Below, in pieces: positions 3,422 through 20,739 of a DNA stretch of 32,000 nt. Below the pieces are notes generated by a model. That model was not told the origin of the DNA and ran no database searches. It worked only from the letters and a program-made list of their open reading frames with translations. Made by a program: the position numbers and the translations under genes. Within the stretch, counting starts at the first letter, position 1. Every line of letters starts with the position of its first letter. This DNA is from Flavobacteriaceae bacterium (GTDB taxonomy: Bacteria > Bacteroidota > Bacteroidia > Flavobacteriales > Flavobacteriaceae): positions 3,630,001-3,662,000 of the forward strand of contig OZ245049.1 of NCBI GenBank assembly GCA_965224465.1, written 5' to 3'.

Positions 3422-4098
3422 ATGCTAGAACACGAAGATATCACAAAAACACAGGAGATAAAAGGAAAATTTAATAAGATTTGGCTTAGTTCAGAATACC
3501 TACAAGCACATCTAAATATTTTAGGATTCAATAAAATTAAAAACAAGTTTAGTTGGTGTAAGAAATCGGGGATTTCATTCGGTAATTTAATCTCTACACT
3601 TTTAATTTTACCTATTATCGGATTTGATTCTATTCATGGACTTACAAGTAGTAAAGACAAGGGGTTAGGTCAGTCGGGTAAAGATTCATACTATCGAATC
3701 CTAGCAAATCAAAAGATAAATTGGAGGGTTTTTCTAGCTCAGTTTGTGAAGCAATATCTATTAAAAGAAGAGTTCTTTACTCCATCTCAAGACGCTACAA
3801 AGTGCTTGATCTTTGACGATACTGATCTTTCTAAAACAGGAAAGACAATTGAAGGTGTTTCAAAAATATACAACCATGTGTCAAAAACGTATTACCTAGG
3901 CTTTAAGCTACTTGTAGCTGGTTATTGGAATGGAAGTGTATTTATCCCTGTTGACTTTAGTTTGCATCGTGAAAGTAAAACATCAAAATTAAAATACGGT
4001 CTAACGGCGAAGCAACGTAGGCTTCAAAAGAAAACTCCAAGATGTAGTAAAACAATTGCAGCAAAGAGGTATCAGGAACTCAATAAAAAGAAAACAGA
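3422..4098 (+). pseudogene. IS4-like DDE transposase, N-terminal fragment truncated by the IS66-family element
   Basis: The ORF contains the first catalytic-Asp region (KCLIFDDTDLSKTGKTIEGVSKIYNHVSKTYYLGFKLLVAGYWNG...IPVDFSLH). The second D and E regions are missing. The reading frame runs straight into the IS66 terminal repeat starting at 4099. Confidence 0.7.
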
Positions 4099-4127
4099 CG
4101 TAAGCGTACGGTAAAGTACACCCTTGA

Positions 4128-4274: not shown

Positions 4275-5501
4275 CAGGGCAAACTCACACTTTAATGCTT
4301 AATACTTTTAACAGATATGCTTGATTCCAGCCTGCTTTAAGTCTTTTTCCAGCAATACCTTGTTTCTCCGTTTTTTCGTTTCTCAATAGATTCAGGGCAA
4401 TTTTCAATAGTATTGAATAGTTTTGAGCTGCATTTTTATTTCTTTTTCTAGAGGCATCCTCTGAGAATGCAACATCCAATGTCCAATGTAATTTATTCTC
4501 TACACCCCAATGAGAACGAATATGACTTTGATGATTTACAGCGGTATCTTTTAAGCTAGAAATGTAATATCTAGTTGCCTTTTCTGTTTGTTTATCACTG
4601 TTTTTGAACTCCCTTATACTTTCTATTTTTATAACTTGAGTCAACTTATTCCATTTATTATCTGCGTTCTTAATAAATTGAAAATCAGAAATTACGCTAC
4701 ATTTTCTAGTTTCAATTCTTCCATGACCAAGGTCAAAGTCTGTATCTATTTCTATGTTTTTTGAGAATTTGAATTCGTCCTTTATTTCCTCTAGTAGTTG
4801 TTTTTGATTTCCCTTTACGGCAAGTATGTAATTGGCATCATTTTTTATAATCTTATCCGCAATATCAGTTTGAGTTCCCATTGCGTCTATTGTAATTATA
4901 TTGCCTTCTATACACAAAGTATCAAGTAATTCCGGGATCGCAGTTATCTCATTAGATTTTTCATTGACTCTAATTTGACCCAAAACTAAATTGTTTTGAT
5001 CAGCCCATGCGCTCACCATATGTACAGGTGATTTTTTTCCATTTGATTTTGCTCCTCTAAGCGCTTTTCCATCAATAGCTATTACCTGCCCTTTTGATAT
5101 AGTTGAAATAGAATTGACCCATTCTATGAAACATGTTTCAAGCTGAGAACTGTCTATCGACGAGAATACCCTGTTAATAGTGTCTTCTGATGGTATTCCA
5201 TTTGGTAATTGTAGAAATTTCCTTAAAAAACCTTCTTTTGAACAAGCAAACTCAACCATTTGTTTCCATGTTTCTGCTCCACAAATGACTGAAATTATCC
5301 CAATAAGGAGGATGTCAACCAAGTTGTGTAACTTGTTTATATCGCTTCTAGGGTCTTCTATATTGCCAAAAATACTCATTATTTTACTGTCTGAATTCAT
5401 ATCGTTACCTATCTAATTATCAACATAATATACTGATAATTAACGAGGTAAGCAACTTAAATTCAATGAAATTAACTTAAAAATAGTATGAGTTTGCCCT
5501 G
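4275..5501 (-). mobile_element. ISAs1-family insertion sequence nested in IS66 tnpC
   Basis: Inverted termini CAGGGCAAACTCA (4275-4287) and TGAGTTTGCCCTG (5489-5501). A perfect 10-bp target-site duplication TATAAAATAG sits at 4265-4274 and 5502-5511. Confidence 0.88.
4285..5400 (-). CDS. ISAs1-family (H-repeat-associated) transposase
   Basis: 371 aa with the family-typical N-terminus IEDPRSDINKLHNLVDILLIGIISVICGAETWKQMVEF...LPNGIPSEDTINRVF and a DDE core (IAIDGKALRG...ITIDAMGTQ...HWGVENKLHWTLDVAFSED). Confidence 0.92.
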   Translation of the reverse strand: MNSDSKIMSIFGNIEDPRSDINKLHNLVDILLIGIISVICGAETWKQMVEFACSKEGFLRKFLQLPNGIPSEDTINRVFSSIDSSQLETCFIEWVNSISTISKGQVIAIDGKALRGAKSNGKKSPVHMVSAWADQNNLVLGQIRVNEKSNEITAIPELLDTLCIEGNIITIDAMGTQTDIADKIIKNDANYILAVKGNQKQLLEEIKDEFKFSKNIEIDTDFDLGHGRIETRKCSVISDFQFIKNADNKWNKLTQVIKIESIREFKNSDKQTEKATRYYISSLKDTAVNHQSHIRSHWGVENKLHWTLDVAFSEDASRKRNKNAAQNYSILLKIALNLLRNEKTEKQGIAGKRLKAGWNQAYLLKVLSIKV

Positions 5502-6867
5502 TATAAAATAGAGCTATGTTTTGTGCGGACTCATGACTGCCAGCAAAGAGATAATTTTTTCTGCCAATAGCTAAAGGTCTTATGGCATTTTCTATATTAT
5601 TGTTGTCTATTTCAAACCTGCCATCATCGATGTATAGTTTTAGGTTTTGCCATATTTTAAGAGTATAAGCAATTGCTTTTCCTATGGCACTTTTAGGCAG
5701 TACGTTTTTTCGCTCTTTTGTAAGATAAATTTCTATTCCGTCTAAAACAGGTGATGCATGTTTTTCTCTATATGCTTTAGTTTGCTCAATAGTTAATTCT
5801 TGTTCTTTTATTTTACGTTCTATCTTGTATAGCTTTTGAATTTCCAACAAAACAACATCCGCTCTTTTAGGATCATTATCCAGCGCCTTCTCAAAATACC
5901 GCCTAGCATGAGCCATGCAACCTAAAAGAGTAATTTCTCCTTTTGTTGTTAAGTTTTGGTATGCAGCATACCCATCGGACTGTAGTGTCCCATTGAAATC
6001 TTTAAAAAACTCTTCTGGAACAACTTTTCCTCTCCCTTTATTGTATTCAAAAAGAACTAAATTTTTAACAGGATTTCGATACACCCACATATACCCTCTG
6101 TGTGTTGATTTTTTCTTGTCTTTATCTAAAACCTTTATAGGAGATTCGTCTGCTTGAATATAATTGGCATTTTCTAAAAACTGAGCCTTAAATGTATCGT
6201 ATAAAGGAGCGATAAGCTCCGAACTTTTAGATACCCATCCTCCAATTGTTGATTTACTTACTTTTAAATCTTGTCGTTTAAAAATTTGAATTAATCTGTA
6301 AAGTGGTAAATGGTCTACAAATTTTGAAATAAGTATAAAGGCCAATAAACTTGCTGATGCATTTCCTTTAGGTATCGGTAAGCTTGGTAATTCTGCTATA
6401 ACAACGCCTTTTTCTTCCGGAAGTGCATATTTAGGTCTTACAATTCGTCTTACAAAAACGGAAAGAGGCGTTATTTCTAAAAGTTCTGTAACTTCTTCTC
6501 CTATTTTTACAGCTCCTTCTTCTATGTGCTTAGGCTCTATAATCTCTTCTACTCGCGGAAAATGCGCAGGTATAGAAGAGCGAACAGGTTTTTTCTTTCC
6601 TTTCTTCTTTTGTTTTCTTTCGTAGATTACAATATGTTTTTTGTATGCCTCTTCTTTCTCAGCTATTATTTTTCCGAAAAGCGACAATTGATTTGTGTCA
6701 ACAGGGATAAAACGTTCGCTTTTAGACCCGAAAACCATTCTTTTAAGCTGCTCGTATTGCTGCTTAATTTCAGCTAGTTCTTGAGCTGTTTTTTCAAGTT
6801 CAATCTTTAAAATTACCAGCTCTTTTTGTATGTCTATTGTATTGTTTTCCACACTATAAATATACAA
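5502..6867 (-). pseudogene. IS66-family transposase (TnpC/Orf3), 5' portion, disrupted by ISAs1
   Basis: N-terminal coiled coil/leucine zipper, then LPLYRLIQIFKRQDLKVSKSTIGGWV, ADESPIKVL, GYMWVY, LQSDGYAAY and CMAHARRYF, all IS66 transposase hallmarks. In the ORF track (5440-6867) the last 21 aa (GQTHTIFKLISLNLSCLPR) are read-through into the ISAs1 end. Confidence 0.88.
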
Positions 6868-6910
6868 AAAACAAGACTAAATAGCAGGTAAAACCTACAG
6901 TTTTATTGAA

Positions 6911-7264
6911 TTATTTAGCCTCTAAATAACGTTCGTTTTTCTGAGTATTTATAATACTAATTCCGTCTAAAACCATAACCATTTGGGTATAACTCAAAAC
7001 TACTAATCCATCTTCAATGTCGTATTTTGGAAGCTCAAAAATACCTCGTTCCAATCGTTTATAATACAGTACAAATCCTCCAGGTCGCCAATGAAGAAGT
7101 TTTAGTTTATTTTTTTGCTTATTGATAAATGCATAAACACTATTTCTATCTCGCTCTTGTTCCATGTGCTCACTAACTAATCCACTTAATCCATTAAATC
7201 CTTTTCGCATATCAACTGCAGATAAGTGATAATAATACGTGTGTTCTGTACCTAATCCTAACAT
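6911..7264 (-). CDS. IS66 Orf2-like protein (IS66 TnpB accessory protein)
   Basis: 117 aa. DMRKGFNGLSGLV...VYAFINKQKNKLKLLHWRPGGFVLYYKRLERGIFELP matches the IS66 Orf2 family. It lies directly upstream of tnpC on the same strand. Confidence 0.9.
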   Translation of the reverse strand: MLGLGTEHTYYYHLSAVDMRKGFNGLSGLVSEHMEQERDRNSVYAFINKQKNKLKLLHWRPGGFVLYYKRLERGIFELPKYDIEDGLVVLSYTQMVMVLDGISIINTQKNERYLEAK

Positions 7265-7344
7265 TTATATTTTCGTTTTTGTTTAGATGCAAAAATTAGA
7301 TTATTTTTAACTTCTTACAAGATGTAGTTCTCCGTACGCTTACG

Positions 7345-8010
7345 TCTATTGAGCGTATATATCAGCATATTAGGGAAGACAAGAGGAGTGATGGTGATTT
7401 ACATACACACCTTCGCAGACAGGGAAGGAGATATAGAAAACGTGGCTCATCAAAGGATTCTAGAGTGGTTATAAAGAATCGCATTAGTATAGAACAACGA
7501 CCTGAAGTTGTTGAACAAAGAAATCGATTTGGAGATTTAGAGGTCGATTTAATCATAGGTAAAAACCATAATCAAGCCATACTTACCGTAAATGATAGAG
7601 CTTCTGGAATGCTTAAAATGAAAAAAGTAAGCTCTAAAGAAGCAGTTGTTGTCACCAAAGCTATCAATGAAATATTAGAAGACTGGAAGCCTTATCTACA
7701 TACTATAACAGCTGATAATGGAAAAGAATTTGCAGGCCATGAGCAGGTTGCAGAAAATTTATGTATTGATTACTTTTTTGCGCATCCATATCACTCTTGG
7801 GAAAGAGGATCTAACGAAAATTTAAATGGTTTGATTAGACAATATTTTGCCAAAGGAAGTGACTTTACAAACCTAACAGATCAAAGAATCAAAGAGGTAG
7901 AAACAAAATTAAATAACAGACCTAGGAAGAGACATAAATACGAAAACCCTATATTTGTAATGGAACAATTATTATTTAACTAAAAGTTGCGTTTGTGACT
8001 TGAATTCAGC
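7345..8010 (+). pseudogene. IS30 copy B, 5'-truncated (3' two-thirds of the transposase plus the right terminal repeat)
   Basis: The sequence from TCTATTGAGCGTATATATCAGC (7345) onward is nearly identical to 26556-27220 of copy C. The frame is open from 7345 (SIERIYQHIRED...) to the stop at 7983. It ends with the shared terminus ...GTTGCGTTTGTGACTTGAATTCAGC at 8010. The left part was replaced by the IS66 element end. Confidence 0.88.
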
Positions 8011-8583
8011 ATGTCAAAAAGATATTAGTAAAAACAATATGTATAAAAATTACAGGTTTGTTAGACTTTTTTTGAGAACAGATAACGGCGATAGTAATAA
8101 TATATAAAACAGCTTAATAAAACATAAAACACAATCTGCATCAACATCGTGTTTTAAAGGTTCTTTCCAATACAGATAACTCGCTTAAATACATCCATTA
8201 AGTACTCATAACCGTTGTGTCATAAGCAAAGCGTATCCATAGCAATTATTGTTTATTTTGTTAGATTAGAAGACTCTTTCCTAGTTAGAGCCTTCCTAAA
8301 TTCATGCTTTTAAAAAGCAGAAAAACAGGAATCCTGCCTTTAGTCCAACCATGCAAACACTAATACCTAGAATTAAAACACAAAAAACACGTGCGTATAA
8401 CTATTTTTTGTACATTTGAAGACTGCTTATACATATATACGTCTGAATAATAAAATAACCCAATGCTACATCGTAGGTTAAATGGATATGCCATCTTGTT
8501 TAGCACTGCTACTGTGAGAATATGGGATTATAAGTAATTTAACACACTCAAGCGGTAGAACATAACATAAAAAACAAAAAATT

Positions 8584-9045
8584 ATGCCAGGACCAGCAGC
8601 AACAATATCACACATGCACACATGCCCTATGTATAGTGGAACAAGCCCACATACTGGCGGACCCATAATAGGACCGGGAGTGCCAACAGTTTTAATAGGA
8701 GGAAAACCTGCCGCAGTAATGGGGGATCAATGTACTTGTTCGGGACCACCCGATGTAATTGTAGAAGGTGTTTCTACCGTATTAATTGGCGGGAGACCCG
8801 CAGCTACTATGGGATCGAAAACAGGTCATGGAGGCGTAGTAAGCATTGGAGATCCTACCGTACTTATTGGTACAAGATGTAGTGCTCCTACCGCAATAAT
8901 GCCTTTGAGTCAAATACCTTTTCCTAAAATCACTCTAATTAATAGAATATTAGGGAATACAAGGCAAGCGCAAGAAAACCAAAAAAAAATAAAAGAAGAA
9001 GCTAAGAAACATGGATATCTTAGTGATTTTAATTTAAGTATCTAA
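8584..9045 (+). CDS. PAAR-domain protein (spike-tip protein of contractile secretion systems)
   Basis: 153 aa. A Gly-rich beta-strand repeat pattern has two PAAR-type motifs (VLIGGKPAAVMGD and VLIGGRPAATMGS), plus the conserved H/C pattern (HMHTCP...CTCSGP...GHGG). A short Lys-rich C-terminal extension follows. Confidence 0.9.
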   Translation: MPGPAATISHMHTCPMYSGTSPHTGGPIIGPGVPTVLIGGKPAAVMGDQCTCSGPPDVIVEGVSTVLIGGRPAATMGSKTGHGGVVSIGDPTVLIGTRCSAPTAIMPLSQIPFPKITLINRILGNTRQAQENQKKIKEEAKKHGYLSDFNLSI

Positions 9046-9056
9046 AATAAAAATCT

Positions 9057-10589
9057 ATGAGAGTAAGTTATCCGCTAAAAGATATTAGTACTGATGCCGA
9101 AGCAAAAAATTATTTGGGGAATCGTAACCTTTTTGGAAAATACCCTATTGGAGCGCATAATGCTTGGCATGGTGGTATACATTTAGAAGGTGCAAGTAGA
9201 GAAATACAATGCATTGCGCAAGGTCGTATAATTGCCTACCGCTTTGCAAAAGAGTATGAAAAAACGATAATAAACAATACGGATCACTTATATTCCAACG
9301 GATTTATACTCATACAACACGATTATAAAAGTAAAGAAAAACAAAAAATGACCTTTTATAGTTTGTATCATCATTTAATGCCCGAATCGGATATTATTAG
9401 TGATGAAAACAGTGCAAAAATACCTAATTTTTTAAGTAAAAGTTCTTATATTATAATAAGTAAAGAAGGCATACCAATTGAAGGACTTAATGCAAGAGTT
9501 TTAAAAAACAATAAAATAGATATATCTGAAAAAGGAGTGTCTGTAGTAATACCTAAAGGAAGTACTGTAAATTTAGCTCCTTTAGAAGACAACAAAATAA
9601 ACACTGGAAGTTACAAGCGAATTAACTACACAGATAAAGATGGTAAAACATATACCGATATTTATATATATGTAAAAATCGGAAAACAAGTAAAAAAAAT
9701 AACAGAAAATACCTTAGAAATAATTACTACAGAAGATGAAACAGAAAATAAATCTGTTTTAGGAGCTAGAGTAAGAGAAAGTGGAAAGTCATCAGCCAAA
9801 ATTATAAAAATAGTGCCTTATGATGATGTCTTAGAAATAGATGAAACAGTAAAAGGTAATTGGAAAAAATTAAAAGATGGATCTGGCTTTATACATAACT
9901 CTGGTTTCACAACAAAAATTACATTTGATAATTCCAAAGGAAAACTAGACGAAATTACAGCTTGTGATATACCAATAAAAGCAGGTATAACCATTGGTTA
10001 TACAGGTAACCTAGGTTTTAAAGGATACAAAGGATATAAAGCAACCCACTTAGAAGTATTTACGACAGATGATGTTTTTGAGTTTTTAAGTAATGAAAAA
10101 AAAGATGGAAAAGAAGAACAATATTTTACAAATATTATAGCAGGTACAAAATTAAAAACAAGCCTATTTTACAAAGTAGATATTAAAGCAAATACCCCTA
10201 TAAAAGTACTTAAAATTAAAGGAGATTATGCACAAATAAAAACTACAAATATAGAAGGTGTTGTAGGGAAAAGTCTTTTAGGTGGGTATAAATCTGCAAC
10301 AGGAGGAAGTTACTATACCGTAAGCCCTAACAATGTATCAAAATTAAATCCAAGTTTTAATAATATATTACCTAGTGACTTAAAAAAATTATATTGGGTT
10401 AACAGATGTGATTCTTCTGGTAATAATCTTACTAAAAGTGAAGAAAATAAAAAAATAACCGATGCTAAAAAAATAAAAAAAACATACATTCCCTATAGAA
10501 AAGTAACATACAAACCTAAAACTAAAGGAACATTTTGGATAGAAAAAACATCTATTTCCAAAATAGCAGAAAAAATAAAAAAAAATTAG
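9057..10589 (+). CDS. Atypical M23/LytM-like domain protein with inserted SH3b-like modules
   Basis: The two halves of the M23 fold are recognisable but lie far apart. The first half is NAWHGGIHLEG...IAQGRIIAY...GFILIQHDY...FYSLYHHL (aa about 35-106). The second is IKAGITIGYTGNLGFKGYKGYKATHLEVFT (aa about 306-335). Between and after them are SH3b-like stretches (LGARVRESGKSSAKIIKIVPYDDVLEIDETVKGNWKKLKDGSGFIH). The ORF ends in an A9 tract and overlaps the next ORF by 55 nt. Confidence 0.7.
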   Translation: MRVSYPLKDISTDAEAKNYLGNRNLFGKYPIGAHNAWHGGIHLEGASREIQCIAQGRIIAYRFAKEYEKTIINNTDHLYSNGFILIQHDYKSKEKQKMTFYSLYHHLMPESDIISDENSAKIPNFLSKSSYIIISKEGIPIEGLNARVLKNNKIDISEKGVSVVIPKGSTVNLAPLEDNKINTGSYKRINYTDKDGKTYTDIYIYVKIGKQVKKITENTLEIITTEDETENKSVLGARVRESGKSSAKIIKIVPYDDVLEIDETVKGNWKKLKDGSGFIHNSGFTTKITFDNSKGKLDEITACDIPIKAGITIGYTGNLGFKGYKGYKATHLEVFTTDDVFEFLSNEKKDGKEEQYFTNIIAGTKLKTSLFYKVDIKANTPIKVLKIKGDYAQIKTTNIEGVVGKSLLGGYKSATGGSYYTVSPNNVSKLNPSFNNILPSDLKKLYWVNRCDSSGNNLTKSEENKKITDAKKIKKTYIPYRKVTYKPKTKGTFWIEKTSISKIAEKIKKN

Positions 10590-12853
10590 ATATAATTACC
10601 TCAATTATTCCTGACTATTTTTTAACAGAAGAACAAAAATACGAAACAGTTGAAAGAGAAGCCAAAACAGGAGAAAAAACTACATTATATGTAGATGTAT
10701 GTAAGGCATATATCGAAGTCCCTTTTAGAACCGATGTAGAAGAAGTAACTGTAGAAAAAGAAAAAGTAGTTGACTTACGTAAATTTAAAAAAGCAAAAGA
10801 CGATAAAAAAGACCTTTGGTATAAAGTAGTATTAGATGATACAACTAGTAGCCAATGTGTAGCAGTAAAAGGCTGGGTAAAAGAAAAGGATCTTGACAAA
10901 TTTAGCGCTTACGATTGGCAAAAATTTGGTTTTAAAGATCTAGACGCAGGTAATGAATACATATACTCTGTAAAAGACTTACGTGAGGCAACAGATAGTG
11001 CCGATTTTGTAACCGAAATTTGGGATAAAACAATAGATACAGATGGCAATAAAGTATTAGATATACTAGAGCTTATTAGAGCGTTTAGTAAACCAGAAAT
11101 AGCACAAAAACTATCTCGTTTGGTATGTAAGCACAAAAATGAATGGTCTTATACTATGGACGAAATAAAACCAGAAGTAAAAGAACTCTATGATTTTGGT
11201 ATACAATTAGAAGAAGTTACAGCCGAAAAACAAAAACTAGAAACCGAAAGGGATGATAGTTTAGCCAAAATGGAAACCAAAATAGAAAATTTAATGTGGT
11301 GGGATGAGGCAAGTAAAAAACCCTACACAGCACCCGTAAAAGAAGAAGATAAAACAAAAACGAGTAGCACCAAAAGACCTTCTATGTTGCCAGAAGGTAC
11401 AGTGGTAGAAGAAATACCACAAAAAGATGTTGTACCTTTAGACAATAAAACAACAGCAGCTAAACCAGATGCTAAACCAACGAAAGATAGTATACCAACG
11501 ACAAGTACAACCGCTGCTCCAGCACCAGAAACTAAAGTAGAAGAAAAAGAAGTACCACCAAAACGTATGTTTCCAAGTACAGATATAGTACATCATTTTC
11601 ATCCTATTGCTTGGGTGGAGCAGATGAGACTTGTTTTTGGGGAAGGTGGCGGAGATTGTGAATCTCTTATTTGGGGAAATAAAGTAAGTTGTGAATTTAG
11701 AAAACGAGTAATTCAAATATCTAAACGTCTTGAATGCGATCCTAATCATTTAATGGGAGCTATGGCTTTAGAAACTGGAGGGAAATTTGACCCTAAGGTC
11801 GATAATGGTTTAGGTAAAGACAAAGATGGTATTGGTTACATCGGATTAATTCAGCTTGGAAATGATGCTATAAAAGATATGAATAGGAATTATTTTCTAC
11901 ATAGGGCAAAAATTAAAAAGAAAGATTTAAGAGCAATGTCTGCCGTAGAGCAATTATGCTATGTAGAATATTATTTAGCCAAACATAAAGGTAAACTTAA
12001 AACCTTAGCAGATTTTTATTTAGCAATACTTTGGCCAGTAGCAGTAGGTCACGGATCAGAACCAAATTATATCATTTTTGATGATGATTCAGTAGGGGAT
12101 AAGAAAACAGCATACCATTCAAACCCTACATTTCATAGAGAAGAAGATGAATATAAGAAGAATAGTAAAGGAAAAATCTATAAAAGACATGGTAAGGCAG
12201 GAGGTAAAACGTATGTTTGGGAAATAGCTGAAGCTATACAAGAATGGTATGATAAGGGAGTGCCTGAAAAAAACACTTCTAGTACCTGTACTTGTAATAC
12301 AGATTGCTCATGTGGTAAAGGATGTATTGATTTAACAGGTAAAGTTACTTGGGTGAGTCAGTATAATAAATCGGAGCTAAGAAAGAATAAACAAGGGCGC
12401 TTAGAGATGTATACAAAGGCTTGCTGGAAAACTTCAAGAAAGTTATTGCTTAATGCAGGGCTTGGCACTGATTCCGGTAAAAATATGAGTCCTATTATTA
12501 CGGCTTTAGAAAATAAAGATCATACTTCTATAGCATTAACAACAGATGCTCAATCTGGTGTTAGTTATATTGATGTTCAGTTAGAAAAAGGAAACCCTGT
12601 CTTAGTTGGCTTAAACCATACACTTTCTTATGGAATAAATGATAAGACAACAGACCATTTTGTTGTTATTGTTGGTAGAGCTTGCGAAAATAATAAAACA
12701 TACTATCGATTTTATGAAGTAGGTACTAGTTGGGCTCATTTAGGGCAGCATTCAAATAACAAATTTTTTTTAGGAGATGATTTTTCTTTAAGGTCATATA
12801 GGAAAAATAAATCTGAAAAATATTTAGTAAGTCAAGTACGTGAAAATTTTTAA
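10535..12853 (+). CDS. Full-length polymorphic toxin: conserved N-terminal/handle region + SLT/lysozyme-like domain + C39-like papain-fold peptidase domain
   Basis: 772 aa. The N-terminal part is unique to this gene. Nucleotides 11094-11640 are the handle shared with the downstream cassettes: a coiled coil, a P/T/K-rich linker and HHFHPIAWVEQM. The variable C-terminus follows. Its first domain is lysozyme-like (HLMGAMALETGGKFDP...GYIGLIQLGNDAI). Its second is Cys/His papain-like (TWVSQY...KACWKTS...TDHFVVIVGR...FYEVGTS). The only Met start overlaps the upstream ORF, so it may really be a -1 frameshift continuation of it. Confidence 0.8.
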   Translation: MDRKNIYFQNSRKNKKKLDIITSIIPDYFLTEEQKYETVEREAKTGEKTTLYVDVCKAYIEVPFRTDVEEVTVEKEKVVDLRKFKKAKDDKKDLWYKVVLDDTTSSQCVAVKGWVKEKDLDKFSAYDWQKFGFKDLDAGNEYIYSVKDLREATDSADFVTEIWDKTIDTDGNKVLDILELIRAFSKPEIAQKLSRLVCKHKNEWSYTMDEIKPEVKELYDFGIQLEEVTAEKQKLETERDDSLAKMETKIENLMWWDEASKKPYTAPVKEEDKTKTSSTKRPSMLPEGTVVEEIPQKDVVPLDNKTTAAKPDAKPTKDSIPTTSTTAAPAPETKVEEKEVPPKRMFPSTDIVHHFHPIAWVEQMRLVFGEGGGDCESLIWGNKVSCEFRKRVIQISKRLECDPNHLMGAMALETGGKFDPKVDNGLGKDKDGIGYIGLIQLGNDAIKDMNRNYFLHRAKIKKKDLRAMSAVEQLCYVEYYLAKHKGKLKTLADFYLAILWPVAVGHGSEPNYIIFDDDSVGDKKTAYHSNPTFHREEDEYKKNSKGKIYKRHGKAGGKTYVWEIAEAIQEWYDKGVPEKNTSSTCTCNTDCSCGKGCIDLTGKVTWVSQYNKSELRKNKQGRLEMYTKACWKTSRKLLLNAGLGTDSGKNMSPIITALENKDHTSIALTTDAQSGVSYIDVQLEKGNPVLVGLNHTLSYGINDKTTDHFVVIVGRACENNKTYYRFYEVGTSWAHLGQHSNNKFFLGDDFSLRSYRKNKSEKYLVSQVRENF
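10577..10585 (+). other. A9 homopolymer / A_AAA_AAA slippery heptamer at the junction of ORFs 9057-10589 and 10535-12853
   Basis: In the upstream frame the codons read ATA AAA AAA AAT TAG. A -1 shift on A_AAA_AAA (10577-10583) continues as AAA TTA GAT ATA ATT ACC (K L D I I T), which is the downstream ORF frame. Confidence 0.35.
11094..11640 (+). repeat. Handle repeat, copy 1 (master copy inside the full-length toxin gene)
   Basis: It begins CAGAAATAGCACAAAAACTATCTCG and ends ...CATCATTTTCATCCTATTGCTTGGGTGGAGCAGATGAGACTTGTTTTTGG. It differs from copies 4 and 6 by only about ten substitutions, by eye. Confidence 0.9.
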
Positions 12854-12857
12854 TAGC

Positions 12858-13715
12858 ATGGTTAGAGTAATAAAAGTAGTTTGTTTATGTATCTTTTTTA
12901 GTTCTTGTTTTAACGTGAAAGAAGATACTAATAAAAAAGGACTAAATAATAAAGTTATTAACGCTACTTCTAATAAAAAAATAAGTCAAAATTATTTTAA
13001 AAACTTAAAGGAGTTTAAAAGTTTTATAGAAGGGAAGAGGTGGGTTGATGTAAAAGATGAATTCCCTTGTTATGAAGACAGTAGAAGTATAATGATGAAA
13101 GGAAATTATGTTTATATATATACAATGGAGCCCACTAAGTGCAAAATAGAAAGTATAAAGCAAGTAGATTCAAAAACCTTAGAGATTAAAGTAGAAAAAG
13201 GAAGTAGCCGAGGAAATAGAACTCTTCAGCTTGAGATTATTAGCTTAGAAGAACGTTTAGTTAAATGGACAAATTATTATGAAGAAACATTTGAAGCTAA
13301 GCCTTATGATATTATTTGTAAAGATTGGAGTAAAGAACCTGAAAAGAAAGAATCTTACCATACCAGTATGTATAACATTAAAAATGCTACATTAAGTATA
13401 AATGGAAAATGGGAAGGTTTATATTATTTCAAAGGTGGTGAGTTAGATCTTGATTATATCTTAGATTTTAAAGAAGGTAGAATGCAGTTAAATGTTCAGG
13501 CTCGTCAATATGGTTATTCAGATCAATTAAAAGCTGTTCAATTAGGTGATACTCTAGGTTTATATCATCATAAAAATATATCAGGCTATAATTATGATGA
13601 AGATCGAGCATATGATTTTTTAAAATTTTATAAATCGTCAGATGGCAAGTTTTATTTTGAAGGTAAACTACCTTATTTACCAAAAGGAGCTATTGAGTTT
13701 GATAAAGTAAAATAA
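12858..13715 (+). CDS. Lipoprotein, candidate immunity protein I1 for the full-length toxin
   Basis: Signal peptide with lipobox-like Cys (MVRVIKVVCLCIFFSSC). It starts 4 nt after the toxin stop, or overlaps it if GTG 12840 is used. No recognisable enzymatic motif. Position and topology fit immunity against a periplasm-acting toxin. Confidence 0.7.
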   Translation: MVRVIKVVCLCIFFSSCFNVKEDTNKKGLNNKVINATSNKKISQNYFKNLKEFKSFIEGKRWVDVKDEFPCYEDSRSIMMKGNYVYIYTMEPTKCKIESIKQVDSKTLEIKVEKGSSRGNRTLQLEIISLEERLVKWTNYYEETFEAKPYDIICKDWSKEPEKKESYHTSMYNIKNATLSINGKWEGLYYFKGGELDLDYILDFKEGRMQLNVQARQYGYSDQLKAVQLGDTLGLYHHKNISGYNYDEDRAYDFLKFYKSSDGKFYFEGKLPYLPKGAIEFDKVK

Positions 13716-13733: not shown

Positions 13734-15098
13734 TTGTACGCTGCTCCAGCACCAGAAACTAAAGTAGAAGAAAAAGAAGTGCCACCAGAACGTATGTTTC
13801 CAAGTACCAATATAGTACATCATTTTCATCCTATTGCTTGGGTGGAGCAGATGAGGTTGTTGGAAAAACAAACTGGTGAATGTTATTGTAATAGAGATTT
13901 TGAAGCTGACGACCTTAAAGTAATGGTAAAAAGAATTAGAGATAATACTTTCTATAAAGGTAAGTCTATTACTAAATTTCATCAAGAAAAATTATTTCAT
14001 GGTCGTGGTGGTGTACCAGAATCAGATCGGAACTTTGAGAAGTTTTCAGATGTACTAAACAAATCGTTTACTAAATACGGCATAACAAATTGTATTCATA
14101 AAATACATTTCCTAGCTAACATGTATGTAGAGACGATGTATTTTACAGCCACAGAGGAACTTCCAAATGAATCAAACGCTAATTATAAGAAATATAAACC
14201 TTATGTTGGTCGTGGATTTATGCATTTAACTTGGGATTATCATTACAAAGAATATTCTGAAATAGCTGGAAATACAGATATTAAATCAGGAACTAACTAT
14301 AAAAAAGCAGCAAGTAATCTAGAATTGGCAGCTGATACAGCAGGTTGGTATTGGAAAAAAAGTAAACTCAATTCCTTGTCAGAAACAGATGACATTTTAA
14401 AAACCACAAAAAAAATTAATGGTGGTACTAATGGTTATAAACATCGTAGAATTGCTTGGATTAAACTTAAAGAAATATTTAATTACCCTCATGGTTGTAG
14501 TACCGATAGTAGCAAACACGAAGCACCTGTATATGGTGAAGGTGTTTTAGAAGAAATGCGTGAATGGGCAGATAAGCATGTGCAGTATAAAATGGAAAGT
14601 GAATGGGTTGGGAAAAGACGAACTGGATTACGTTCTAGTCAAACAAAAGATGCTCTTGGACGATTAGATTGTTCAGAATTTGTATGTCGATATTTATATA
14701 AATTAGGAGTAACAAATACTTTAAAAGTTATTGTAACAAGTGGTATGACAAACCAAACTGATTTCAGGAAAAATCTTGGAAATGATAATATTGAACATAT
14801 TTATGGAAGTGAGAAGGAAGATTTTATTCCTCAAGCAGGCGATATATTTGTTTGGTCAAGATCTAGTAGCGATGGTCATACAGGTATTGTGCATAGTGTA
14901 GATGGAAACAAAATTACTATACTTGAAGCAATTGGTCAAGGTGGATCAGCGGATAAAACTTTTAACGCTAACAATGGTGGATATGAAGGTAAAAACTCTA
15001 CTCGTACATCCGTTTATAAAAGAAATGGTGGTGCATTATCTGGTCATGGAGGTTGGAAAGGGTATTTTAGACCTCTTAACTATTCAAAAATAAAATAA
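13734..15098 (+). CDS. Orphan toxin cassette T2: short handle remnant + GH19 (chitinase/endolysin-like) + NlpC/P60-CHAP-type peptidase
   Basis: It begins inside the handle (APAPETKVEEKEVPPERMFPSTNIVHHFHPIAWVEQM) and has no ATG; the track start is a TTG. GH19 motifs are IHFLANMYVETMYF and YVGRGFMHLTW. The C-terminal papain-like peptidase shows GRLDCSEFVCRYLY...AGDIFVW...GHTGIVHSVDGNKITILEA. Confidence 0.75.
   Translation: MYAAPAPETKVEEKEVPPERMFPSTNIVHHFHPIAWVEQMRLLEKQTGECYCNRDFEADDLKVMVKRIRDNTFYKGKSITKFHQEKLFHGRGGVPESDRNFEKFSDVLNKSFTKYGITNCIHKIHFLANMYVETMYFTATEELPNESNANYKKYKPYVGRGFMHLTWDYHYKEYSEIAGNTDIKSGTNYKKAASNLELAADTAGWYWKKSKLNSLSETDDILKTTKKINGGTNGYKHRRIAWIKLKEIFNYPHGCSTDSSKHEAPVYGEGVLEEMREWADKHVQYKMESEWVGKRRTGLRSSQTKDALGRLDCSEFVCRYLYKLGVTNTLKVIVTSGMTNQTDFRKNLGNDNIEHIYGSEKEDFIPQAGDIFVWSRSSSDGHTGIVHSVDGNKITILEAIGQGGSADKTFNANNGGYEGKNSTRTSVYKRNGGALSGHGGWKGYFRPLNYSKIK
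13739..13856 (+). repeat. Handle repeat, copy 2 (3'-terminal about 120 nt only)
   Basis: CGCTGCTCCAGCACCAGAAACTAAAGTAGAAG...GGGTGGAGCAGATGAGG. It matches the last part of copy 1. Confidence 0.85.
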
Positions 15099-15103
15099 AA
15101 CAC

Positions 15104-15892
15104 ATGAAACAAACAATAAAATTTATCAGCATACTACTTATTTTTTTTTCTTGTAAAGGTCAGATTAAACAAAAAACAGAACCTTTTCAAATCTTAACCA
15201 ATCAAGAATTAAAATTAAAATCTATAAATGAACTCCGATTGTTTAGAAATGAAGTTTTTGCTCGCAAAGGATATGTGTTTAAAGATGGGGAATTAAACAA
15301 TTATTTTAAAGCACAAAGCTGGTACATACCTAATAATGATAATAACACCATTGTGTTTTCAGAAAAAGAACAAGTATATATCTATGAAATAAAAAAAACA
15401 GAAAAAACCTTAGCGTTAAATACTAATAGAAAATGTTTAAGTAATTTAAGTAAACAATATTCTGACTTATACCCTCTGACAAATAAAGATTTACTTAATG
15501 AAAAGTTTAAATACAGCAAACAGTTGTATGGTATTGAAATCCAGAGCCCTAGTCCTATGATAAAAGGCAATCTTTGTGGTGGTGGAAGTGTTTGGAATCT
15601 TAAATGTTCAGGAAATGTTAATTACCAATTATTATTTTACACTTGTGATTCTGATAATCTTTATATGAGTTTAGCTATTATTAAGAATGAAGATGATATG
15701 GATTTTCTAAAACTTTACGGCACTTATGTTCATGATTTTAAAAATGTAGATAAATATAGTTTTATTTTAGACCATGATAACTTAGATATTATCAAAACCA
15801 ATTACACCAATACAGAAGATTACAAAGAAAAAGAAGTTTCAAAAGAAGTAAAAAAATATAAGTTAACTGATAATGGTATTATAGAGTTATAG
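15104..15892 (+). CDS. Lipoprotein with YARHG domain, candidate immunity I2
   Basis: Signal/lipobox MKQTIKFISILLIFFSC. LRLFRNEVFARKGYVFKDGELNNYFKAQSWY matches the YARHG domain signature. It starts 5 nt after the T2 stop. Confidence 0.75.
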   Translation: MKQTIKFISILLIFFSCKGQIKQKTEPFQILTNQELKLKSINELRLFRNEVFARKGYVFKDGELNNYFKAQSWYIPNNDNNTIVFSEKEQVYIYEIKKTEKTLALNTNRKCLSNLSKQYSDLYPLTNKDLLNEKFKYSKQLYGIEIQSPSPMIKGNLCGGGSVWNLKCSGNVNYQLLFYTCDSDNLYMSLAIIKNEDDMDFLKLYGTYVHDFKNVDKYSFILDHDNLDIIKTNYTNTEDYKEKEVSKEVKKYKLTDNGIIEL

Positions 15893-15946: not shown

Positions 15947-16958
15947 ATATGCTTGTCCGCTAGTTTCCCTAATATTTTTGTTGTATTTTCATAAAACATA
16001 AATAATCGATATGAGATTAATTGAATTTAGTGAGCACTACCCAGATGAAGCCAGTTGTAAAGCAGCATTTAAGTCCTATCGCGAAAAAGAAGGGGTTAAG
16101 TGTAAAAAGTGTGGAGGAACTACTCATTATTGGAAAAAGAAACGAGAACAGTGGGAATGTAAAAACTGTACTCACAGAACAACGTTGAAAAGCGGTACTG
16201 TTATGCAAAGCAGTAAATTACCTTTTAAGTATTGGTTTATAGCTATGCATTTAATAACAAGCACAAAAAAATCATTTTCGGCTAAAGAGATTCAACGTCA
16301 GATAGGTCATAAAAGATATGAGCCTATTTGGGCAATGGTTCATAAGTTAAGATGCGTTATGGGGTTAAGAGACGATGAATATCAGCTTAGTGATGAGGTT
16401 GAATTGGATGATGGGTTTTTTGAAACCGTTTCAATAACAAGAGATAAAACAGCACCTTTAAAAAGGGGGCGAGGAAGTCAAAGACAATCAATAGTATTAG
16501 TAAGTATAGAGTCTAAACTAGAATCAGAACACTATAACAGCAAGAAACACAGGGTGAATAAGAGAGTGAAATTCCTAAAGATGAAAGTAATCAGTTCTTT
16601 AAAGAAAGAAGAGGTAGCTCAAACTGTAAATCAAATGGTTGAAGGAGGTAGCAAAATAATTTCCGATGGATCAAATAGCTTTAATGACTTGACTAAGGAT
16701 TTTGAACTAGTCTCTAATGTTGTGCCAAAGAAAAATATCAATTCTATTTTACCTTGGGTTCACAAAGCAATTAGTAACGCCAAAAGGCTATTACTGGATG
16801 TCCATCATAGAATAGATGATGATTTTCTTCAAAATTACTTGAACGAGTACTGCTACAAATTCAATAGGAGAACATTTAATAACTTATTCGACAGGCTTAT
16901 GATTGCAGCGGTATCATATAGATGGAATTATCTTGGGGAAGTTAACGGATAAGCATAT
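15947..16958 (+). mobile_element. IS1595-family insertion sequence
   Basis: Terminal inverted repeats ATATGCTTGTCCGCTAGTT (15947-) and the reverse complement of AAGTTAACGGATAAGCATAT (-16958). Encodes a single transposase. The right end abuts the interrupted 5' end of an immunity gene, whose intact copy is at 31526. Confidence 0.8.
16011..16952 (+). CDS. IS1595-family transposase (zinc-ribbon + DDE_Tnp_IS1595)
   Basis: 313 aa. N-terminal Zn ribbon (CKKCGG...WECKNCTHRTTLKSGTVMQSSKLPFKYWFIAMHL) followed by a DDE region (VELDDGFF...ISDGSNSF...NYLNEYCYKFNRR). Confidence 0.9.
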   Translation: MRLIEFSEHYPDEASCKAAFKSYREKEGVKCKKCGGTTHYWKKKREQWECKNCTHRTTLKSGTVMQSSKLPFKYWFIAMHLITSTKKSFSAKEIQRQIGHKRYEPIWAMVHKLRCVMGLRDDEYQLSDEVELDDGFFETVSITRDKTAPLKRGRGSQRQSIVLVSIESKLESEHYNSKKHRVNKRVKFLKMKVISSLKKEEVAQTVNQMVEGGSKIISDGSNSFNDLTKDFELVSNVVPKKNINSILPWVHKAISNAKRLLLDVHHRIDDDFLQNYLNEYCYKFNRRTFNNLFDRLMIAAVSYRWNYLGEVNG

Positions 16959-16973
16959 AAGTTTATCATAACA

Positions 16974-17954
16974 GTGTTATTTATAACTACAATCGCATGT
17001 AAAAATAATGCTCAAAACACAGACAATACAAATAGTACTCAAGAAATATTAACTGAATTACCCGATGAAATAGCTAATAAAACATGGGTTTATATTAATC
17101 CCATAGAGAAACAATGGTTTAAAACCATGTTAGAATATAATGATAGGGAATATATAAAGACAGAAACAAACTCCATTGATGTGCCTATAGATCTCTATGA
17201 CCCTGTTAGATCTTCTCAAAAAATAGAGTCTATTACTGTAAATGATAAAGGTTATTCTATTAAGTTTAATAAGTCAAAAAAACTAGGAGGTATTGATTTT
17301 AAATGGCTAGATAAAAGTAAAGGATTAGGGATTTGGGAGATAAAGTACATAGATGAAGGATATGCGGAATTTGGAGATACAATTGTCAGAAAAAAAAGTG
17401 TGATAAAAAAATTTATTACGCCAAATAATTTTCCTAAACCTAAACCTAAAGAAGAAATAATAATTGTAGGAGAGGATAAGCCTATTGATTCTAATATCTA
17501 TTCTGAATTGATAGATGACCTACCTATAGAAGGACGATTTTCTTGTAAATACACAGAAGAAGGAGAGACTTATACTGGTGCGTTTTTAGAAATATCAAAT
17601 AAAGATTATGAAGTTGAAAATGTATCCAATAATACCATTGAAACTTATAAAAATGAGATAAAAATTAAAATAGAAGATGTTTTGTATCTCCAATGCAATG
17701 CGAGAAAAATAAAATCATCAACAAATAAATATGCTTTGTTTTATAAGATATTTTACACGAAATATGAAGCACCTGTAGATTCCCAATATTATTCAACAAC
17801 TCGTCCAATAGCAGAAATAGAAATATTAGATAACAATACCATAGAAAAGAAATGGCTAGGAATCTATAACAAGAGAACAAAACAAGTTGAAAGTATTAAT
17901 GGTTATTTTACTTGGGGCGATGAATTTTGTGATATTATAAAGCGAATTGAATAA
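16974..17954 (+). CDS. Toxin-less copy of immunity lipoprotein I6, 5' end removed by IS1595
   Basis: From 16959 onward it is identical, by eye, to 31543-32000. The intact copy starts MKSINKFIITVLFITTIACKNN. Here the first codons are replaced by the IS end, and only an alternative GTG start (MLFITTIAC) remains. No cognate toxin lies upstream. Confidence 0.6.
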   Translation: MLFITTIACKNNAQNTDNTNSTQEILTELPDEIANKTWVYINPIEKQWFKTMLEYNDREYIKTETNSIDVPIDLYDPVRSSQKIESITVNDKGYSIKFNKSKKLGGIDFKWLDKSKGLGIWEIKYIDEGYAEFGDTIVRKKSVIKKFITPNNFPKPKPKEEIIIVGEDKPIDSNIYSELIDDLPIEGRFSCKYTEEGETYTGAFLEISNKDYEVENVSNNTIETYKNEIKIKIEDVLYLQCNARKIKSSTNKYALFYKIFYTKYEAPVDSQYYSTTRPIAEIEILDNNTIEKKWLGIYNKRTKQVESINGYFTWGDEFCDIIKRIE

Positions 17955-18410
17955 CTCTATGATTTTGGTATACAATTAGAAGAAGTTACAGCCGAAAAAC
18001 AAAAACTAGAAACCGAAAGGGATGATAGTTTAGCCAAAATGGAAACCAAAATAGAAAATTTAATGTGGTGGGATGAGGCAAGTAAAAAAACCTACACACC
18101 ACCAGTAAAAGAAGAAGATAAAACAAAAACGAGTAGCACCAAAAGACCTTCTATGTTGCCGGAAGGTACTGTGGTAGAAGAAATACCACAAAAAGATGTT
18201 GTACCTTTAGACAATAAAACAACAGCAGTTAAACCAGATGCTAAACCAACGGAAGATAGTATACCAACGACAAGTACAACCGCTGCTCCAACACCAGAAA
18301 CTAAAGTAGAAGAAAAAGAAGTACCACCAAAACGTATGTTTCCTAAAAGCAATATAGTACATCACTTTCATCCAATTGCTTGGGTGGAGCAGATGAAACT
18401 TGTTTTTGGT
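17955..18410 (+). repeat. Handle repeat, copy 3 (about 455 nt, 5'-truncated)
   Basis: It starts at CTCTATGATTTTGGTATACAATTAGAAG (= 11186 in copy 1), immediately after the TAA of the preceding immunity gene. Confidence 0.88.
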
Positions 18411-19829: not shown

Positions 19830-20739
19830 AGCACTAAAATTAATAAGTTTTATAATTTTTATAACATCTATAGTAAGTTGTAAAAAAGAACTTAGGAGTA
19901 CTATAATTGCAGAGATAAAAAATGAAACATCTAAAAATAACTCAAATAAACATTTTGAAGAATATTCCTTTACGATTAGTTGTGGTTCAGGTTGTGCTTT
20001 AGTTTATAATGCTAAAAAGGTCGATGGTAATAGAATAGGTTACAAAGTTGATCAATTTATTAATGAGGTTCTTTCATCAGATCTTTTAGAAAATGAACTT
20101 TCTTTTTTTTCATTTGAATGTAATAATACGAATGTTGTAAAAAGTGTTAGCGATAATGAAAGTCATAATATTTTAGAGTCTGCGGATTATACAATAAATC
20201 TTCAAGAAGCTCTAAAAAAAGTTGGAGATATTTTTTGTAAAAAAAATACTAATGATATAAACCCTGCTTTAAAACAAGCGTTAATTCAGTTACCTTTTAC
20301 CGTTATTACTTTTATAGAACAAAAATCAGAAAAAAGAAAAGACACATATATATCACTAAATGATACAGAATTAAAACTTCTAAAAAGCTCACTTTTCAGT
20401 AAGTTTTACGACGAAGAATATGAGACTATAAATGATATTTTTAAATTAAACACGGAGAAACAATTATTTAATAATTTTATAGTTGTATCAGAAAATGAAG
20501 TAGGGTATGATTATAGTCTAATTAGTGTAAAAAACAACAATCTAATATCTGGTTTAGTTCTTACAAGCGTGGAGACTAATTCTATATCTAGTAATGTTCT
20601 TATAAATAAAAAATTGATTATAAATTTAAGTACATTAAATGAAGATGTTTTTGCTCAATATAAAATTTCAAATGAGGGATATATCAAACAAGTATTTGAT
20701 AATCGTGAACATATGAAAAATTATGAAAGTGAATTATAA
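19819..20739 (+). CDS. Lipoprotein, candidate immunity I3
   Basis: Signal/lipobox MRIKALKLISFIIFITSIVSC. Its ATG overlaps the T3 stop by 11 nt, suggesting translational coupling. Confidence 0.7.
   Translation: MRIKALKLISFIIFITSIVSCKKELRSTIIAEIKNETSKNNSNKHFEEYSFTISCGSGCALVYNAKKVDGNRIGYKVDQFINEVLSSDLLENELSFFSFECNNTNVVKSVSDNESHNILESADYTINLQEALKKVGDIFCKKNTNDINPALKQALIQLPFTVITFIEQKSEKRKDTYISLNDTELKLLKSSLFSKFYDEEYETINDIFKLNTEKQLFNNFIVVSENEVGYDYSLISVKNNNLISGLVLTSVETNSISSNVLINKKLIINLSTLNEDVFAQYKISNEGYIKQVFDNREHMKNYESEL

Follow-up and report, generated by a model that had tools for sequence, protein, structure and literature searches.

Polymorphic toxin loci of the Rhs, CdiA and MafB types consist of a full-length gene followed by 5'-truncated (orphan) cassettes, in which a conserved stretch precedes a variable toxin end and a linked immunity gene. 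In these arrays the junction with the toxin end is marked by a conserved peptide, the toxin end of the main gene differs between close strains, and recombination between the main gene and an orphan fuses a silent toxin end to the export-competent trunk. In Salmonella Typhimurium, main-orphan recombination activates a silent Rhs toxin (PMC3967940). Here we describe an array resembling these, with main-orphan recombination as the proposed route of exchange, in a 32,000 nucleotide (nt) stretch of DNA from a Flavobacteriaceae bacterium (assembly GCA_965224465.1, contig OZ245049.1, forward strand positions 3,630,001 to 3,662,000; this whole stretch is called the window below, and coordinates refer to it unless stated otherwise). 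The main gene encodes a putative type VI secretion system (T6SS) cargo effector. Its conserved part (the trunk, or carrier) ends in a segment, the handle, which is repeated at the beginning of each orphan and is closed by the peptide motif HHFHPIAWVEQM.

The array also differs from the Rhs, CdiA and MafB loci. Its trunk is without YD, Rhs or haemagglutinin repeats, and no match to the RHS, YD or haemagglutinin families of Pfam and NCBIfam was obtained on the trunks. CdiA-type domains or neighbour genes were not found in the window, and the junction motifs of Rhs, CdiA (VENN) and MafB were not seen in the window translations. The junction reads xHFHPIA[FW]VxQM and is predicted to form a structural strand and helix of the carrier, a disordered Pro/Thr linker of about 75 residues lies inside the handle, and the toxin ends are nearly all periplasm-acting cell-wall hydrolases paired with lipoprotein immunity, not nucleases.

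The closest described effector is TseP of Aeromonas dhakensis (homologues AHA_1849 and PSPTO_5204; eLife 2025), a chimeric amidase-lysozyme effector of the T6SS (PMC11893102). TseP interacts with VgrG2. Its C-domain is a lysozyme, and its N-domain is a zinc-dependent amidase, which was superimposed on 3SLU and has the conserved residues H19, H23, H109, H339, H359 and E539; mutation of E539 lowers amidase activity. An EF-hand is predicted, whose role is not known. AHA_1849 was split at residues 640/641, and the C-domain of TseP alone binds VgrG2 and is secreted by the T6SS. In the same paper the N-C joint is attributed to a single fusion event; the words 'polymorphic' and 'orphan' do not occur, and none of the three uses of 'motif' concerns the junction. 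The array layout is thus known from Rhs, CdiA and MafB, but in Pfam, NCBIfam and searchable papers we did not find a description of this junction motif or of polymorphic, orphan-carrying TseP-like effectors. The T6SS effectors of the MIX, FIX, RIX and WHIX classes (for WHIX, PMC12135965) likewise combine a conserved N-terminal region for delivery with diverse C-terminal toxins; their markers are N-terminal motifs, in contrast to a conserved block at the toxin junction. No sequence relationship to these four classes was detected. Orphan arrays with a common DNA-level handle are not known to be a defining feature of them.

Self-BLAST of the window revealed six direct repeats of 118-569 nt, each closed by HHFHPIAWVEQM (Table 1). 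The sequence-only reading of this DNA had listed six handle copies, and these were borne out, the earlier coordinates lying within about 10 nt of the self-BLAST ends. A degenerate DNA pattern for HHFHPIAWVEQM was scanned against the window and gave six matches, all on the plus strand and with 0 mismatches. In the control, none of 100 dinucleotide-preserving shuffles of the window contained any match (0 expected by chance). Copy 1 encodes conserved helices, then a disordered Pro/Thr-rich linker and then the junction block. Any two long copies are 95-98% identical, and pairs that involve a short copy 88-97%. The linker of copy 4 carries a 12-nt tandem duplication (GCTAAACCAGAT twice, approximately at 23697-23720 as judged from the alignment), which adds AKPD and indicates that the linker tolerates changes of length.

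When the copies were anchored on the motif and identities were counted in 12-nt windows, 9-12 of 12 positions were identical up to and through the motif; past it, identity dropped to the level of chance (1-6 of 12) in the space of one or two windows. All five orphan handles stop 12-24 nt past the motif. The sharp cliff read from the sequence is therefore real, but it has small steps: LVFG is still common to several toxin ends after the motif, and copy 5 also has GEGGG in common with copy 1 before the sequences diverge. The toxin end of orphan 4 opens with RLVFGEGGG like that of the main gene (27419-27451) and then becomes GH19-like. This mosaic junction shows that crossovers were not confined to a single base.

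The 5' ends of the orphan handles correspond to copy-1 positions 11087 (copies 4 and 6), 11181, 11512 and 11524, that is, to four distinct points. The differing ends had been seen as traces of independent recombination or deletion events. The ends do differ as described, but copies 4 and 6 have in common not only their 5' end but also 59 more upstream bases and the upstream gene; these two copies are not mutually independent and derive from one block duplication.

Exchange of a toxin end was found in the comparison with the metagenome contig L001, which comes from a near-identical strain. Over window positions 8392-11635 the two have a DNA identity of 99.2%; this interval comprises the upstream region, the PAAR gene and the trunk to 9 bases past the motif. 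Past 11635 the main gene of L001 continues with a homologue of the toxin end of window orphan 1, which is followed by an immunity gene of the YARHG type (L001 7802-9116 is 84.6% identical to window 13739-15074). The same type of toxin end and YARHG gene thus occupies the main gene position in L001 and lies one position downstream in the window. This is a natural swap between strains exactly at the junction, and with it the proposal that a main gene and 5'-truncated orphans meet at one junction that is used in recombination gained support. The orphan of L001 itself (P0002) is 95% identical in its first 174 nt to the main junction and toxin-end start of the window and then diverges, which suggests that exchange also occurs a little inside related toxin ends. 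When all copies are aligned, the variants that flank the motif (STD/STN/KSN, CAT/CAC and CCT/CCA) do not follow the type of toxin end; such shuffling is expected after repeated crossovers.

A sharp junction common to six copies could also mean that a site-specific recombinase uses the 36-nt motif as its DNA site, in the manner of shufflons or other cassette switching, and the codons ATT, GCT and TTT are indeed unvarying in 26 copies. Other codons of the motif vary while the peptide is kept (CAT/CAC, CCT/CCA/CCG and GTG/GTT/GTA), and Pseudomonas keeps the peptide with different codons. All copies are in direct orientation, the only recombination genes nearby are transposases of insertion sequence (IS) elements, with no dedicated recombinase gene among them, and homology extends up to about 0.5 kb upstream of the motif, as for homologous recombination. 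Site-specific recombination is extremely improbable on this evidence and was rejected for the synonymous variation, the direct orientation and the lack of a dedicated recombinase.

Downstream of the main toxin end and its lipoprotein gene, five cassettes follow, each with a different C-terminal domain, which a remnant of the handle precedes and a lipoprotein gene follows. A lipoprotein-like open reading frame (ORF) of 241-326 amino acids stands after the main and each orphan toxin end and is a putative immunity gene. The C-terminal domains of the array include CHAP, GH19-like, TIGR02594 and PG_binding_1 domains and weakly matching C39- or papain-like regions. The GH19 call for the orphan 1 type comes from the equivalent region of the L001 protein, which matches GH19 endolysins in the PDB. 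Toxin end 1 clusters with relatives P0013, P0021 and P0101 (its Peptidase_C39_2 match is weak, E = 0.11), and that of orphan 5 with P0005, P0015, P0099 and P0131. Trunk, handle, toxin ends and immunity genes are all AT-rich (G+C 24-36%), with no clear signature of foreign origin by G+C in any of them. A second full-length paralogue (P0004, 1047 amino acids) is encoded in the same genome outside the window and has the same handle and motif followed by another toxin end; the orphans could consequently recombine with two main genes.

The orphans might instead be wreckage, namely duplicated full-length paralogues that were truncated by deletions and IS insertions, with no ongoing switching; the likeness of the handles would then stem from recent duplication. 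Such an origin would fit the very high density of IS elements in and around the array (IS30, IS66, IS1595, IS4-like or DDE_5), the frameshift in the main gene, the handle-less toxin-end fragment at 20769-21302, the duplicated immunity genes and handle blocks, and the existence of the second full-length paralogue. It sits badly with the state of the cassettes: all five orphan frames are intact from handle to stop codon (454-631 codons), and each is followed by an intact lipoprotein gene, which would be unexpected under neutrality. Moreover, of the four distinct 5' truncation points, three have no IS end beside them. Copies 2 and 3 start no more than 25 nt from the stop codon that ends the upstream immunity gene, and copy 6 starts 83 nt after such a stop codon; copy 5 starts 82 nt after an IS30 copy. 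The architecture also recurs in other contigs that carry the motif, and an actual exchange at the junction separates two strains. We consider wreckage without switching unlikely, while still allowing it some weight.

To what extent the junction is a property of this genome was judged from its relatives. A word-indexed protein search with the handle gave only two matches, both orphan-like, since distant relatives escape its index. The translation of window 10535-11650 was searched exhaustively with phmmer against 1.84 billion cluster representatives. This search, in which the motif was not a criterion, yielded 135 representatives from Bacteroidota and Proteobacteria, the majority matching through query residues 40-290. 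With few exceptions, complete members have the block at the end of the conserved region, and it is followed by 160-460 variable residues. Scanning a genome collection with the exact-motif pattern retrieved one Flavobacteriaceae metagenome-assembled genome (MAG; L003), and the scan of one metagenome retrieved 17 further copies, which are distributed over 15 contigs, two of them with a pair of copies. In these pattern scans the invariance of HHFHPIAWV is imposed by the pattern, and the flanking positions are free. Flanking residues R(-9), F(-7), P(-6), V(-1), Q(+10) and M(+11) were conserved, while synonymous positions vary. The metagenome contigs fall into two handle subfamilies, which are 35% identical over the aligned trunk and one of which is without the Pro/Thr linker of about 75 residues. 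The main-plus-orphan architecture recurs in these motif-carrying contigs, and one metagenome orphan has only about five handle codons and no evident start codon. Variable C-termini followed the motif wherever it was found, in line with the expectation raised by the sequence-only reading.

The handle ends in a block of the form R-x-F-P-x-x-[DN]-x-V-[HYW]-H-F-H-P-I-A-[WF]-V-x-Q-M. The family consensus of the block is YHFHPIAFVEQM, a further form being V-[YWH]-H-F-H-P-[IV]-A-F-V-E-[QH]-M. In a 69-sequence alignment of the C-terminal 381 residues of the carrier, the junction block is the most conserved window of 12 residues (3.33 bits per column); the runner-up is LSRLVCKHKNEW (3.08 bits per column), and conservation is about zero by 4-5 residues past the junction block. 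With residues numbered as in the translation of window 10535-11677, the junction residues are kept as follows in 68 sequences: H354 in 65, F355 in 58, H356 in 59, P357 in 66 and F360 in 62. The window has W at position 360, a variant found in 2 of the 68. The motif had been called invariant; it is so within the window, but not in the family, where the W of PIAW is rare. Judged by these sequences, the motif of the window is a subfamily variant of a family-wide block and not an oddity of this genome. An upstream H-x-x-E-W block is conserved to a similar degree (H200 in 66, E203 in 67 and W204 in 68 of the 68 sequences). In Pseudomonas, where there are hundreds of members, the junction reads W-H-x-H-P-V-G-L and the ends are pesticin-like, GH19, muramidase or SLT domains.

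By their first domain, 120 toxin ends were grouped into 24 clusters, with Pfam names including CHAP, GH19, Phage_lysozyme, Peptidase_M23, Muramidase, Glucosaminidase, PG_binding_1 and Ntox44. The handle had no match in Pfam (E up to 5) or in NCBIfam, and a PDB sequence search returned GH19 endolysins only, in the toxin end only. The motif had not been recognised as any described pre-toxin boundary, and we likewise found no description of it in Pfam, NCBIfam, PDB sequences or searchable full-text papers.

The C-terminal 381 residues of the carrier were modelled with AlphaFold using the family alignment (mean predicted local distance difference test score, pLDDT, 75.3; predicted template modelling score, pTM, 0.62). 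The model is confident for residues 80-270 and again for 331-370, with the disordered Pro/Thr linker (275-330) between them, an anatomy that agrees with the helices, linker and motif read earlier from the sequence. Residues 351-360 have a pLDDT of 93; IVHHF (351-355) is a strand and PIAWVEQMRLVF (357-368) a helix. Since a strand needs a partner and only the carrier is present in the model, the block would dock back onto the carrier; LVCKHK (196-201), which is also a strand, is a candidate for pairing with 351-355. In a model of orphan 1 without the carrier, the same motif residues have a pLDDT of 66-69 and form no strand; a segment with pLDDT below 50 (residues 45-48) follows and then a confident toxin domain. 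Foldseek searches with the carrier model against PDB and viral libraries returned nothing at E <= 0.001. Our reading of these models is that the motif is probably the C-terminal structural element of the carrier, with a hinge after it; identity and conservation would then stop where the carrier ends.

The view that the motif is purely a recombination anchor did not hold up. The block is kept at the protein level between phyla while synonymous positions vary, and it is the predicted final strand and helix of the carrier. That the motif belongs to a catalytic domain common to the toxin ends was also rejected: at least 24 unrelated groups of ends follow it, and it loses both confidence and the strand when modelled without the carrier.

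Conservation of this degree would also be compatible with a second function. The junction block might be a processing site, with a cut at the motif or shortly past it that frees the toxin from the carrier, made either by a protease or autocatalytically, by a metal site of the nearly invariant His residues together with the H-x-x-E-W block; this would not conflict with a role in recombination. In keeping with this, conservation of the block across phyla exceeds that of any other in the C-terminal region of the carrier, H200, E203, W204, H354, H356 and P357 are nearly invariant together, the segments 196-201 and 351-355 bearing some of them are both strands in the model, a flexible Gly-rich hinge follows the motif, and a nearby EF-hand could sense periplasmic calcium. 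In TseP, E539 is a functional Glu in the C-terminal part of the N-domain (PMC11893102) and a possible counterpart of E203. Nevertheless, no protease fold was found (Foldseek at E <= 0.001 against PDB and viral libraries; Pfam gave none on the handle), and the parts of the TseP paper considered here contain no statement of processing at the N/C boundary (PMC11893102). Some relatives (P0014, P0015 and P0040) are without the second His and the Pro and yet have the same architecture, and structural conservation alone would suffice as an explanation. Processing at the block is on balance rather improbable. A more specific form of the idea, which is speculative and to which we would give equally little credence, is that the junction block and the H-x-x-E-W block, located about 150 residues upstream (about 55 without the linker), together form a metal-dependent site for release or activation of the toxin in the target periplasm, possibly gated by the EF-hand. 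As the joint is kept from Flavobacteriia to Pseudomonas, it would in that case be a universal plug-in socket, through which a cell-wall hydrolase module of any kind could pass from one phylum to another without losing its delivery.

Another reading is that the orphans are used in their present form, an internal start such as the Met of R-M-F-P serving for translation and the products being secreted alone. A possible ATG, TTG or GTG is present in or just before the handle of every orphan, gene callers start P0002 at MFPSTNIVHHFHP, and the C-domain of TseP can be secreted without its N-domain (PMC11893102). Against this, no start is evident in an orphan of contig L013 (reverse strand, position 1718), where stop codons occur up to five codons ahead of the motif, the linkerless subfamily has Val or Ile in place of the Met at position -8, and the handle remnants range from about 5 to 190 codons, unlike a defined secretion signal. 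Stand-alone use therefore appears to be of low probability.

The genetic context links the family to the T6SS. The PAAR gene lies 11 nt upstream of the effector gene in the window, and this pairing also occurs in L001, L003 and L019; in the latter two, VgrG is encoded directly upstream of PAAR. The gene order is VgrG, PAAR, effector (1221 amino acids) and immunity in L003, the Flavobacteriaceae MAG, and TssO, ClpV, TssE, VgrG, PAAR, effector and immunity in L019. TssO is not known outside the Bacteroidota-type T6SS. L020, which is of the proteobacterial type, has the order TssL, TssM, PppA, PpkA, VgrG, a 151-amino-acid ORF, effector and immunity. This ORF (L020 7535-7990) has no Pfam match and occupies, between VgrG and effector, the position of PAAR in Bacteroidota; it may encode an adaptor or a divergent PAAR-like protein. 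Core T6SS genes were not found in the window. By its linkage to PAAR, and to VgrG in relatives, the window protein would be a T6SS cargo effector.

Several features point to TseP in particular. Members of the family have in common with TseP a length of about 850 residues or more, their linkage to VgrG as cargo effectors and many relatives in Pseudomonas. The H-x-x-x-H motif near the N-terminus of TseP and its later His and Glu residues have possible counterparts in the same order, WHGGIH, FYSLYxHL (FYSLYHHL), HxEVF (THLEVF) and HxxEW (HKNEW), a likeness drawn from the published residue list; their spacing in P0135 is similar to that in TseP but not identical. One relative has a weak Pfam M23 match (E = 0.13). 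An EF-hand, possibly corresponding to that of TseP, is indicated by Pfam in relatives and not in the window protein: EF-hand matches of P0113, P0056, P0081 and P0135 lie at a position with which DTDGNKVLDILEL of the window aligns, and Pfam gives no EF-hand on the handle region of the window itself. This EF-hand-like calcium loop is encoded at about 11030-11070, in the carrier upstream of handle copy 1. As in TseP, proteins of that size have a boundary near residue 640 with a cell-wall glycosidase behind it (P0135, of 826 residues, has its junction at residue 640). Past the junction lie domains of the GH19-like, lysozyme, muramidase and glucosaminidase kinds, and some ends are peptidases (CHAP, M23). 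The N-terminal 510 residues of the main effector show homology (E = 2.4e-15) to effectors of Pseudomonas that carry the annotation muramidase, and hundreds of Pseudomonas effectors of matching architecture are homologous to the family. No entry named TseP came up when the L001 effector, P0135 and one Pseudomonas toxin end were searched against PDB sequences. The family likely belongs with TseP, judged by the published description of the latter. In contrast to TseP, it has C-domains of at least 24 interchangeable types and spare cassettes downstream, and its Flavobacteriaceae members are longer, are paired with PAAR and have the Pro/Thr linker.

Taking these data together, we regard it as highly probable that the locus encodes a polymorphic T6SS effector whose toxin end is replaced by homologous recombination through the handle, the orphans being a reserve of toxin ends and of immunity against kin, and the motif being the end of the carrier. 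The rival readings weighed above and this one do not exclude each other. The first approximately 855 residues would be the conserved carrier and the last approximately 400 an exchangeable cell-wall-degrading toxin. The carrier would comprise an M23/LytM-like HxxxH region resembling the amidase domain of TseP, an SH3 insert, the EF-hand-like loop, and the helices and disordered Pro/Thr linker of the handle; a short Gly-rich hinge would follow the block and lead into the toxin. If the junction element is indispensable to the carrier and everything after it is a separately folding module, crossovers that give working chimeras would be confined to the handle, hence the cliff at this place. Exchange could take three routes. 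Recombination between the main handle and an orphan handle could lead to deletion or gene conversion, unequal exchange could occur, or incoming handle-bearing DNA could displace the C-terminus, pushing the old toxin end downstream together with a remnant of the handle. Retained immunity genes would protect against kin that still fire older toxins.

Several points weigh against this interpretation. A recombinant junction was not observed within this genome, and switching within the strain is inferred from the comparison between strains. In that comparison, the main toxin end of L001 and orphan 1 of the window are diverged alleles at 84.6% identity, not the two sides of one recent event. The block duplication indicated by the upstream immunity gene and 5' end that copies 4 and 6 have in common is not independent displacement. 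The locus may be decaying rather than in active use, with its main gene frameshifted and its array riddled with IS elements. Immunity function is suggested by gene position and lipoprotein signals only, and the structural role of the motif by summaries of AlphaFold models only (pLDDT and secondary structure).

The frameshift is caused by an A9 homopolymer in the main effector gene; L001 has A10 at this place and an intact counterpart (L001 5346-9140, an ORF of 1264 amino acids). The difference could be an assembly error, phase variation or a tract that is rescued by transcriptional slippage. Neither the frameshift nor the likeness to TseP had been noticed in the sequence-only reading. Parts of the array are duplicated. 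Positions 16957-17418 are 100% identical to 31539-32000, and 21303-22090 are 99.1% identical to 28757-29544; the latter pair follows two different toxin ends. The fragment at 20769-21302 appears to be the remnant of a further cassette.

The IS load of the window is very high, with three IS30-family copies (one partial and directly upstream of the PAAR gene), IS66, an IS4-like element, DDE_5 and IS1595. IS30, IS1595 and DDE_5 elements lie between cassettes, and one DDE_5 element (transposase ORF 22130-23224) splits a block that is contiguous at 28757-30148. Amid the IS elements at 1394-3289, divergent genes for a FecR-like anti-sigma factor and an extracytoplasmic function (ECF) sigma factor were found, which seem unrelated to the toxin array.

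Table 1. Features of the array and its surroundings in the window
Feature	Position	Strand	Evidence or remarks
IS elements	61-1196 (-), 7344-8021, 26095-27233; 3422-4114; 4285-5400; 5440-7264; 16011-16952; 22130-23224		
PAAR spike-tip protein, 153 amino acids	8584-9045	+	Pfam PF05488 PAAR_motif, E = 5e-21
Main effector gene	9057-12853	+	split into ORFs 9057-10589 and 10535-12853; about 1264 codons, unbroken in relatives
A9 homopolymer, frameshifts main effector	10577-10585	+	direct comparison with L001
Handle copy 1	11087-11643	+	inside main gene; self-BLAST, AlphaFold, alignment
Junction motif copy 1, HHFHPIAWVEQM	11591-11626	+	pattern scan; predicted last strand and helix of carrier
Toxin end 1	11644-12853	+	cell-wall-hydrolase-like region, then weak C39-like cysteine peptidase region
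Putative immunity lipoprotein, toxin end 1	12840-13715	+	signal peptide with lipobox Cys, FSSC; function from position only
Orphan 1	13734-15098	+	handle remnant, GH19-like and CHAP toxin end; Pfam CHAP E = 1e-10
Handle copy 2, 123 nt	13739-13861; motif 13818-13853	+	self-BLAST, pattern scan
Putative immunity lipoprotein, YARHG domain, orphan 1	15104-15892	+	Pfam PF13308 E = 2e-18; lipobox FFSC
Stand-alone putative immunity lipoprotein, no adjoining toxin	16974-17954	+	lipobox TIAC; duplicate of gene after orphan 5
Handle copy 3, 460 nt	17950-18409; motif 18360-18395	+	self-BLAST, pattern scan
Orphan 2	18039-19829	+	handle remnant, peptidoglycan-binding toxin end; Pfam PG_binding_1 E = 1.2e-6; clusters with L010, P0093
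Putative immunity lipoprotein, orphan 2	19819-20739	+	lipobox IVSC
Toxin-end fragment, without handle or motif	20769-21302	+	like middle of toxin-end-1 type; translation compared with P0013 by eye
Putative immunity lipoprotein	21334-22059	+	duplicate of 28788-29513
Handle copy 4, full length	23317-23884; motif 23832-23867	+	self-BLAST, alignment, pattern scan
Orphan 3	23349-25217	+	handle, GH19-like and CHAP/TIGR02594 toxin end; Pfam CHAP, TIGR02594, cluster 1
Putative immunity lipoprotein, orphan 3	25159-26100	+	N-terminal signal sequence ending in Cys, LYSC
Orphan 4	27278-28810	+	handle remnant, GH19-like and CHAP toxin end
Handle copy 5, 118 nt	27316-27433; motif 27383-27418	+	self-BLAST, pattern scan
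Putative immunity lipoprotein, orphan 4	28788-29513	+	translation, self-BLAST
Handle copy 6, full length	29596-30148; motif 30099-30134	+	self-BLAST, pattern scan
Orphan 5	29628-31523	+	handle, toxin end closing in papain/C39-like region; Peptidase_C1 match weak
Putative immunity gene start, orphan 5	31539-32000	+	runs off window end

The finding extends C-terminal displacement with orphan cassettes from Rhs, CdiA and MafB to a TseP-like trunk that is probably itself an enzyme; its family abounds in Pseudomonas and also occurs in Flavobacteriaceae. In contrast to the single fusion described for TseP (PMC11893102), the data indicate that exchange took place repeatedly at one conserved joint. 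The junction consensus is a precise, searchable boundary marker, with which toxin ends can be annotated and orphan cassettes found in genomes and metagenomes. It also suggests a cut point for the engineering of chimeric effectors, the C-domain of TseP having already been engineered (PMC11893102). The toxin ends amount to at least 24 modules directed at the cell wall, catalogued here with candidate immunity partners.

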